A DNA stretch of 62,194 bases from a virus. Its lineage: Duplodnaviria; Heunggongvirae; Uroviricota; Caudoviricetes. The stretch covers positions 1-62,194 of the IMG/VR virus record IMGVR_UViG_3300036829_000172; one strand, 5' to 3'. Numbering within the stretch: position 1 is the first letter of the stretch; each line of letters begins with the position of its first letter. The position numbers and the translations under genes were made by a program. Below the pieces are notes generated by a model. It saw nothing but the letters and a program-made list of their open reading frames with translations. It was not told the DNA's origin and did not search any database. Below are positions 60,482-61,725 of this stretch, piece after piece.

Positions 60482-61725
60482 CCACCACGAACCGCCCCCC
60501 GGCCATCTCCGTAACGACAGCCATACAAACTCCGCCGGGGGGGCTAGACAAGCAGGCAGCGGCCAGAACAGAGTCGTCATCCCTAACATTCACGCCGCTG
60601 CCTGCGCAGACCGCCGGGGACAGCCATAAGCGGGACGGCACCCATACACCGGTCGGTGTCCCCGGCGGCATTCTGCAATCCCAGAGCCCCCCCGGCCAAA
60701 GCGAAGCCGACTTCCAGCAAGCGAGCGCCGGGGGCCCAGATCAGCAGGCAGCGGCCACCTATGTTTCGCTACCCAACAATGGAACGCTGCTGCCTGTTCA
60801 GACGACCGGGGATGGCCAGATCGAGGTCGACGCCCAGCCAGCGTTCGCCGTCCCCGGGTCTGACTTCTTGCGCTCGCCGATCCTCGGGCTGGCCGCAGAA
60901 GTGGTTGATGACCTCGAGCGGGTTCGCAAGGGCAATCGTGAGCGGCTGCGGTCGCTGACCAGCACCGAAGATGGGCGCTTCGGGCTGAGTGCAGAGCACT
61001 CGGACGTGGCGCGGCTGGCGGCTCTCGTCGCCTATCTCGACGAAGCGGAGGACCAAGCGGTCAAGAACCTGCAGAAGATCATGCGGGCGCACCCACTAGG
61101 GCCGTGGTGTAAAGCCACGACAGGGATCGGCGAAAAACAGTTGGCGCGTCTTCTCGCCGCGATTGGTGACCCATTCTGGCATGTGCCCGAGAACCGGTCC
61201 CGCACAGTGTCAGAACTGTGGGCGTACTGCGGGTTTCGTGTGCTCCACCCCGGCGGCCAGTCAGCAGACGACGACCAGGGTTCTCTCGCCGCCGGGGTGG
61301 CTCAAGCACATCGGAAGGGTGTGCAGGGCAACTGGTCAGATACGGCGCGGATGCGTGCGTGGCTGATCGGGACCCAGATCGTGAAAACCCCGACCTCCCC
61401 GTATCGGCCGGTGTACGACGAGGCCCGCGTCAAATATGCGGAGGCTGTGCACGCTCAGGCTTGCGTGCGGTGCGGCCCGCGGGGTAAGCCCGCGCAGCAG
61501 GGAACACCGCTGAGTGACGGCCATCAGCATGCGAGAGCAGTGAGGGTGGTGGCGAAAAGGGTCCTGCGTGACCTATGGCGCGAAGCGAAGCGTCTTCATG
61601 AGCAACCGGCAGAGGCCATTATCGGTTCGTTACCCATAGTGGTAGCGCCGCTGTCGGGTCAAACCCCGGGGGATAGCCAGAGTGCATTCGGCATCCATCA
61701 CACGCACGCCGTCCCCGGGGTTTGA
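60478..61725 (+). CDS. IS110/Nop-domain protein without RuvC (TasA-like)
   Basis: Coiled coil DDLERVR, HPLGPW...GIGEKQLARLLAAIGDP, TVSELWAYCG, HARAVR.VAKRVL.DLW; no DEDD domain; first ~130 codons are the array. Confidence 0.8.
   Translation: MTTTNRPPAISVTTAIQTPPGGLDKQAAARTESSSLTFTPLPAQTAGDSHKRDGTHTPVGVPGGILQSQSPPGQSEADFQQASAGGPDQQAAATYVSLPNNGTLLPVQTTGDGQIEVDAQPAFAVPGSDFLRSPILGLAAEVVDDLERVRKGNRERLRSLTSTEDGRFGLSAEHSDVARLAALVAYLDEAEDQAVKNLQKIMRAHPLGPWCKATTGIGEKQLARLLAAIGDPFWHVPENRSRTVSELWAYCGFRVLHPGGQSADDDQGSLAAGVAQAHRKGVQGNWSDTARMRAWLIGTQIVKTPTSPYRPVYDEARVKYAEAVHAQACVRCGPRGKPAQQGTPLSDGHQHARAVRVVAKRVLRDLWREAKRLHEQPAEAIIGSLPIVVAPLSGQTPGDSQSAFGIHHTHAVPGV
60494..60863 (+). ncRNA. Dual-spacer stem-loop guide array, units 3-8 (TIGR-like)
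   Basis: Six consecutive units, each CCA-N9-CGnnnnCC(A/C)-N9-CG closed by an 8-12 bp stem. Confidence 0.9.
61245..61300 (+). ncRNA. Array unit 9, embedded in the Nop-domain coding sequence
   Basis: Perfect 13-bp stem CCACCCCGGCGGC/GCCGCCGGGGTGG around CA-gtcagcaga-CGACGACCA-gggttctct-C. Confidence 0.85.

Follow-up and report, generated by a model that had tools for sequence, protein, structure and literature searches.

In the available text of Xu et al. 2026 (bioRxiv 10.64898/2026.09.09.750476), stem-loop tigRNA units are described at the 5' end of tas genes, at the 3' end and inside them, in frame and in disordered regions, hence the intragenic tigRNA is already known as a feature. The same preprint reports that the wedge-loop tigRNA of BlTasA was recovered as a processed RNA from the purified RNP, and that TasA represses transcription. 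For the systems of Faure et al. (PMC12045711) processing is described as needing Tas, while Tas itself is no cutter and a host RNase is suspected. Array expression along with processing to Tas-bound single tigRNAs has been published for PlTasA, BlTasA and CsTasR only. Outside the Tas family, SNORD86 in NOP56 is an established case of a Nop protein sensing itself via a box C/D RNA in its own transcript (PMC11028025).

Here we describe an intragenic unit, unit 9, from a window of 62,194 nt, by which we mean the whole stretch of DNA that was analysed (positions 1 to 62,194 of IMG/VR record IMGVR_UViG_3300036829_000172). Unit 9 is a real intragenic guide of a TIGR-Tas RNA-guided DNA-binding system, and such guides are common among its relatives. 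The record, of 195,582 bp and listed as viral, combines phage structural genes with a TrwC relaxase, a coupling protein and an ESX secretion locus; a tape measure is present, and capsid- and terminase-like ORFs were called by eye. It would be a phage-plasmid or a prophage beside a conjugative element. The TIGR cassette is flanked by the DUF4226 gene and the transglycosylase gene of a plasmid-type ESX operon, and a Mycobacterium riyadhense plasmid with the same ESX gene order has nothing between these two genes (L170:3078-3168). Coordinates are collected in Table 1.

Table 1. Features of the TIGR-TasA locus. Positions are those of the window unless the record is named.
Feature	Position	Strand	Remarks
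Whole TIGR-TasA cassette	59859-61726		
Units 1-2 (cores 59882, 59940)	59874..59983	+	in short ORF 5' of partner gene
Partner gene, 161 aa, phrog_4604	59996..60481	+	also precedes tasA in closest relative (L079)
tasA ORF, 415 aa	60478..61725	+	ATG overlaps upstream stop; units 3-11 in frame
Units 3-8 (cores 60503, 60563, 60624, 60696, 60755, 60816)	60495..60860	+	N-terminal extension of tasA ORF
Folded TasA core, coiled coil and Nop domain, no nuclease	60868..61602	+	profile match, fold match, phrog_4285
Wedge loop of TasA, 32 aa	61234..61329	+	between LWAYCG and NWS motif
Unit 9, intragenic stem-loop tigRNA	61245..61300	+	two box C/box D pairs, two 9-nt spacers, 13-bp stem
Left arm, unit 9	61245-61256	+	12 nt
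First box C (CCA), unit 9	61257-59	+	
Spacer A, unit 9	61260..61268	+	9 nt; position variable among homologs
First box D (CG), unit 9	61269-70	+	
Loop ACGA, unit 9	61271-74	+	4 nt
Second box C (CCA), unit 9	61275-77	+	
Spacer B, unit 9	61278..61286	+	9 nt; position variable among homologs
Second box D (CG), unit 9	61287-88	+	
Right arm, unit 9	61289-61300	+	12 nt, complementary to left arm
Units 10-11 (cores 61616, 61677)	61606..61722	+	C-terminal tail of tasA ORF
Orphan twelfth tigRNA unit	record 77591-77642 (L166:15592-15643), given also as 77601		outside window, 16 kb downstream of TIGR cassette
Phage structural, TrwC relaxase, coupling protein and ESX genes	window 10704-17738, 26268-46791; record 82611-87845		

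Unit 9 follows the grammar CCA-N9-CG-N4-CCA-N9-CG between its arms, which form 12 perfect pairs with C61257-G61288 as the 13th. It is the ninth of 11 cluster units; the ten others share its grammar across 59882-61708, all 11 have a 9/9/9 spacing with 8-10 of 10 stem pairs, and 9 of them lie in the tasA ORF. The units are closed by a palindromic stem and hold two spacers between box C and box D, as in stem-loop TIGR-TasA systems with their 8-12-nt spacers. The strict core pattern occurs 11 times (10 in the TIGR cluster) where 0.72 occurrences are expected, and a core with a stem of at least 5 bp was produced by 0 of 200 simulations. The hairpin of unit 9 has a z of -4.17, with none of 200 shuffles folding equally well, and when the whole ORF was folded with a 200-nt span limit the pairing probability was 0.99-1.0 for 12 of the 13 stem pairs and 0.21 for the outermost one. 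Positions 61246-61299 encode the 18-aa peptide of the unit, in frame in tasA. An earlier note on this DNA had reported a complete guide unit with a perfect 13-bp stem within the effector coding sequence, and on this point the reading of the sequence and the pattern scan agree.

The same note had placed unit 9 in the variable loop where IS110 enzymes carry their catalytic-Ser region. Profile searches matched the effector core to TaTasR (PDB 9MTY, E 2.1e-20) and to TasH (E 1.6e-9), and among sequences of solved structures only Tas proteins were matched. An AlphaFold model (mean pLDDT 87.5) gave its best fold matches to six Tas entries (TasR/TasH, Z 16.4-18.9), followed by IS110 recombinases (Z 12.6-12.8; IS621 12.6) and, in third rank, by Nop5/Nop56/Prp31 (Z below 8). 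No Pfam match to a RuvC or HNH nuclease was detected in the effector, and the 130 codons before the core are those of units 3-8; as the protein is without a nuclease domain, it is assigned to TasA. Both the searches and the model thus identify a nuclease-free TasA and not an IS110 enzyme.

As to the loop itself, the position given in the earlier note is reasonable: in an approximate MAFFT alignment (21-26% identity) the wedge loop aligns with the SSG/ASG loop of three Mycolicibacterium palauense IS110 transposases, and the catalytic S241 of IS621 lies in a Tnp-domain loop (PMC11208158). Since the loop was not covered when TasA was aligned to IS110 by HMM, the equivalence is based on MAFFT and the fold match. 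No conserved Ser was found in the wedge loop across 40 aligned homologs, the Ser of the unit 9 peptide is spacer-encoded, and an N-terminal RuvC-like DEDD domain is absent, the core starting at the coiled coil and aligning to IS621 from residue 127 only. The only segment of the model with pLDDT below 50 is residues 128-146, coinciding with the unit 9 insert, and compared with TaTasR, whose loop has 17 residues, unit 9 adds about 15 residues in one block. The name wedge loop was assigned to this segment by position. Unit 9 thereby lies in the tas CDS, in frame and in a disordered region at the wedge loop, as do the intragenic tigRNAs of Xu et al.

Further we investigated the wedge loop in relatives. 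Among the best 120 protein matches, retrieved with a query that favours matches with inserts, loop lengths step near 15-17, 32, 51, 69 and 89 residues. In 116 related loci the loop holds no unit (48 loci), one (19), two (31), three (14) or four (4), and its length starts from 17.4 aa and grows by 17.9 aa with each unit (r = 0.97); it is 17 aa in TaTasR and mostly 13-18 aa in unit-less relatives. This slope bears out the prediction of an insertion of about 18 aa in some homologs only, and the homologs that lack the motif also lack the peptide. Within the folded effector, long and variable inserts are tolerated in the wedge loop only, and unit 9 is special among the in-ORF units only by its position inside the folded domain.

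Of the 116 wedge units 115 share a single frame, which puts the first C of each box at the third position of a codon. At four-fold sites the box cytosine is C in 247 of 264 cases, where the codon use of these genes would give 130.6, with units defined by peptide pattern alone; it should be noted that the relatives are not independent and that kinship inflates the formal significance of this figure. The wedge spacers are identical at only 58 of 198 bases (29%) between close loci, for which the core DNA is 82-97% and the non-spacer loop 83-100% identical. Variable spacers between conserved boxes are what is found in stem-loop TIGR-TasA systems. As the silent box cytosines are kept while the spacers are replaced, unit 9 appears from the sequences to be a live guide slot under selection as RNA, and not a protein motif. 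When wedge spacers were compared with those of outer units, 2 same-slot matches at 0-1 mismatch were found in 1126 comparisons against 0.3 expected, which is no more than suggestive of half units being copied between wedge and outer positions. In L141 (2387 and 3063) a wedge and an outer unit share spacer A and loop without mismatch, and in L129 (779 and 1256) they do so with 1 mismatch.

The presence of a loop unit changes at least 23 times on the tree of the TasA core, at least 9 of the changes being forced by well-supported branches; the tree, from a quick IQ-TREE run with the loop left out, has no root, and a gain is therefore indistinguishable from a loss on it. Across the tree, 68 of the 116 related loci have a unit at this site. 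In the closest relative, 75% identical and with the same upstream partner gene, the wedge unit is decayed (L079:985-1050), the 30-residue loop and the 3' arm being kept and the boxes and the 5' arm lost, and loops of 18-26 residues in other relatives resemble unit remnants. Mycobacteriophage genes were retrieved among the loci as well, e.g. BPBiebs31 gp74, and in these the loop is of 15 residues and holds no unit. The slot of unit 9 is thus old, often used and dispensable, rather than a recent insertion.

Some observations on these relatives may be added. The closest relative keeps five N-terminal units and the partner gene, while the two C-terminal units are absent by eye. Genes of 149-160 aa precede tasA in L003, L004 and BPBiebs31. 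In BPBiebs31 (gp74, L005) and 89 other phage records the actinophage TasA is annotated as transposase or hypothetical protein, and the actinophage TasA genes examined carry upstream stem-loop units. A tas homolog in Mycolicibacterium palauense (L001/L002/L163) is 50% identical with a short loop; no units passing the stem filter were found in its fetched flanks, and it is possibly array-less or uses a different box grammar. No tasA homolog was found in PLSDB.

The N-terminal units of the tasA ORF were counted by frame over window positions 60478-60867 and 79 related loci. Two frames are used by these in-ORF units (177 and 166 of 349) and the third, which would read the boxes as Pro and Arg, is nearly avoided (6). 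Units outside the ORF are evenly distributed over the frames (46, 37 and 40), and the contrast has a p of about 1e-26. Stop codons are not the cause of the avoidance, since 208 of 347 units would be open if read in the avoided frame (15-nt flanks). As one frame is nearly avoided inside the ORF and not outside, the count suggests translation of the N-terminal arrays into a disordered extension. The avoidance may reflect the rare CCA and CGA codons or a Pro/Arg-rich peptide. With units in a translated ORF, processing any of them would break a tasA mRNA.

The earlier note had also taken unit 9 as a sign that units can insert at new sites. Unit 9 gives no evidence of this, since the same loop site is filled in 68 of 116 loci; support comes instead from the orphan unit, which has the stem of units 2, 4 and 7 with new spacers (0 of 40 simulations). 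It is in frame with the mycosin gene mycP and lies at its 5' end; the mycP product has an N terminus 30-31 residues longer than the M. riyadhense protein, and an approximately 950-bp block of small ORFs precedes mycP that is absent from the M. riyadhense plasmid. In IMG/VR the mycP junction had no relatives. Going by this sequence, the orphan unit rather than unit 9 does support units apparently reaching new sites.

The predicted target of unit 9 was taken as spacer A followed by the reverse complement of spacer B, the orientation being our interpretation of published rules. In its own record the best match has 3 mismatches in either orientation, and no exact match was found in IMG/VR. A search of 301 genomes of the Mycolicibacterium palauense family gave 2 one-mismatch matches where about 2 are expected by chance (an estimate), and none was found in plasmids, where the query is at the edge of what BLAST can detect. 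When 640 guides were matched to the tas neighbourhood, the apparent self-targets turned out to be units matching themselves, and once these were masked no excess over controls was left; nothing thus points to autoregulation at the DNA level within about 2.5 kb. As no unit 9 target was found, it is from relatives that a repression role is proposed for this locus.

The explanation that we find probable is that unit 9 is a guide stored in a disordered loop, and that its coupling to the tasA mRNA is incidental. The cassette would be one translationally coupled transcript; TasA would bind those copies of it that are not being translated and a host RNase would trim them, so that making any of the nine in-ORF guides would consume a tasA mRNA. 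By analogy with published relatives, the stem-loop units would give single guides loading a TasA dimer, and the loaded TasA would bind an 18-bp DNA site, with one spacer for each strand, and block transcription with no cutting. Unit 9 would then be kept as guide supply in a compact cassette that needs open frames, and any damping of TasA output would come as a side effect that unit 9 shares with every other in-ORF unit, rather than as a function dedicated to it. A dedicated loop was the suggestion of the earlier note, by which processing of the guide cuts the effector mRNA as built-in negative feedback. Surplus TasA would bind the box C/D unit in its own mRNA, the unit acting as a cis sensor of the TasA level, and either processing would sever the Nop-domain coding region or the bound hairpin would stall ribosomes. 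The stem is predicted to form in the mRNA, the loop site is filled in most of the loci, a link between maturation and translation is suggested by Xu et al., and SNORD86 in NOP56 is a precedent from the Nop family; that many lineages have units at the same loop site could also be due to selection on position, i.e. for regulation. On the other hand a pure sensor would need no new spacers, yet the spacers turn over fully; the loop units vary from 0 to 4, a wedge unit without another in-ORF unit is found in only 9 of 117 loci while 29 have no detected in-ORF unit, and the counterpart of unit 9 is lost in the closest relative. The available text of the Xu et al. preprint holds no feedback experiment, and the word 'feedback' is absent from it. 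Feedback is plausible and not specific to unit 9, as 9 of 11 units are in the ORF and 48 of 116 relatives are without a loop unit; in the dedicated form we consider it unlikely.

It is quite improbable that the guide comes from a separate short transcript begun within tasA, which would leave the full-length mRNA uncut and without coupling. According to the authors the data of Xu et al. cannot separate processing from internal promoters. Against such a start, no sigma70-like promoter was found in 59500-62194 (a weak result, as mycobacterial promoters are poorly covered), and the sequence 5' of unit 9 encodes conserved core residues. Whether guide storage, dedicated feedback or an internal promoter applies, unit 9 is almost certainly a functional tigRNA. 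The remaining reading, in which a conserved peptide, or chance in DNA rich in GC, would have produced the hairpin and boxes incidentally, deserves hardly any credence: the DNA has 65% GC with many inverted repeats (1175 pairs in 8 kb) and the 3' arm of unit 9 encodes a conserved AGVA, yet the simulations, the silent-site conservation of the boxes and a peptide that varies at spacer positions and is absent where the unit is absent refute it.

The contribution of the locus and its relatives is one of quantity: 0-4 guides stand in tandem in the wedge loop as a sub-array, and at constant boxes, stems and reading frame the spacers of these guides are exchanged in place. Such swaps imply an acquisition mechanism that must rewrite two 9-nt segments with length kept and no stops. 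As cultivable mycobacteriophages carry members of the family (90 phage records), comparisons with and without the unit are possible in M. smegmatis. Feedback, if demonstrated, would mean a new principle of regulation in TIGR systems. Further, we speculate, with considerable doubt, that the in-ORF tigRNAs make TasA a self-limiting repressor, in which loading on its own mRNA would set translation against guide production as a bacterial or phage counterpart of SNORD86-NOP56, and that units that have reached the beginning of unrelated genes, mycP for one, would bring these genes under TasA-dependent post-transcriptional control.

Compared with known systems, SNORD86/NOP56 is alike in having a box C/D guide-like RNA in the transcript of its own Nop-domain protein; it is eukaryotic and intronic, acts via splicing and is mainly a cis sensor, whereas unit 9 is coding sequence with replaced spacers. 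The IS110/IS621 bridge recombinases (PMC11208158) share a homologous C-terminal domain (Z 12.6) and a loop at the position of the S241 catalytic loop, but TasA is without RuvC/DEDD and the conserved Ser-Gly, and a guide array replaces the bridge RNA. TaTasR (PDB 9MTY) and SpTasH (21KL/9W04) agree with TasA in the coiled-coil and Nop fold (Z 18.9 and 18.4) as well as in the flanks of the loop, while differing in dual-repeat arrays and active nucleases, the 17-aa loop of TaTasR being without a guide. The PlTasA array (PMC12045711; Guan et al. 2026, bioRxiv 10.64898/2026.08.11.744272) is alike in its nuclease-free TasA and two-spacer hairpins between box C and box D, with units processed singly and sub-arrays split by gaps; no intragenic unit is described in the available text of these two sources. 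Relative to the main text of Xu et al., as far as available, the tandem 0-4 series, the silent-site test and the spacer turnover in the loop are additions. The BlTasA locus of Bifidobacterium longum in that preprint is alike in its nuclease-free TasA, with stem-loop tigRNAs upstream and inside the CDS and an intragenic unit at the wedge loop with the frame intact. The present locus differs from it in the probably mycobacterial host group, in its CCA/CG boxes, in having 9 of 11 units in the ORF, and in its setting in a plasmid-type ESX operon.
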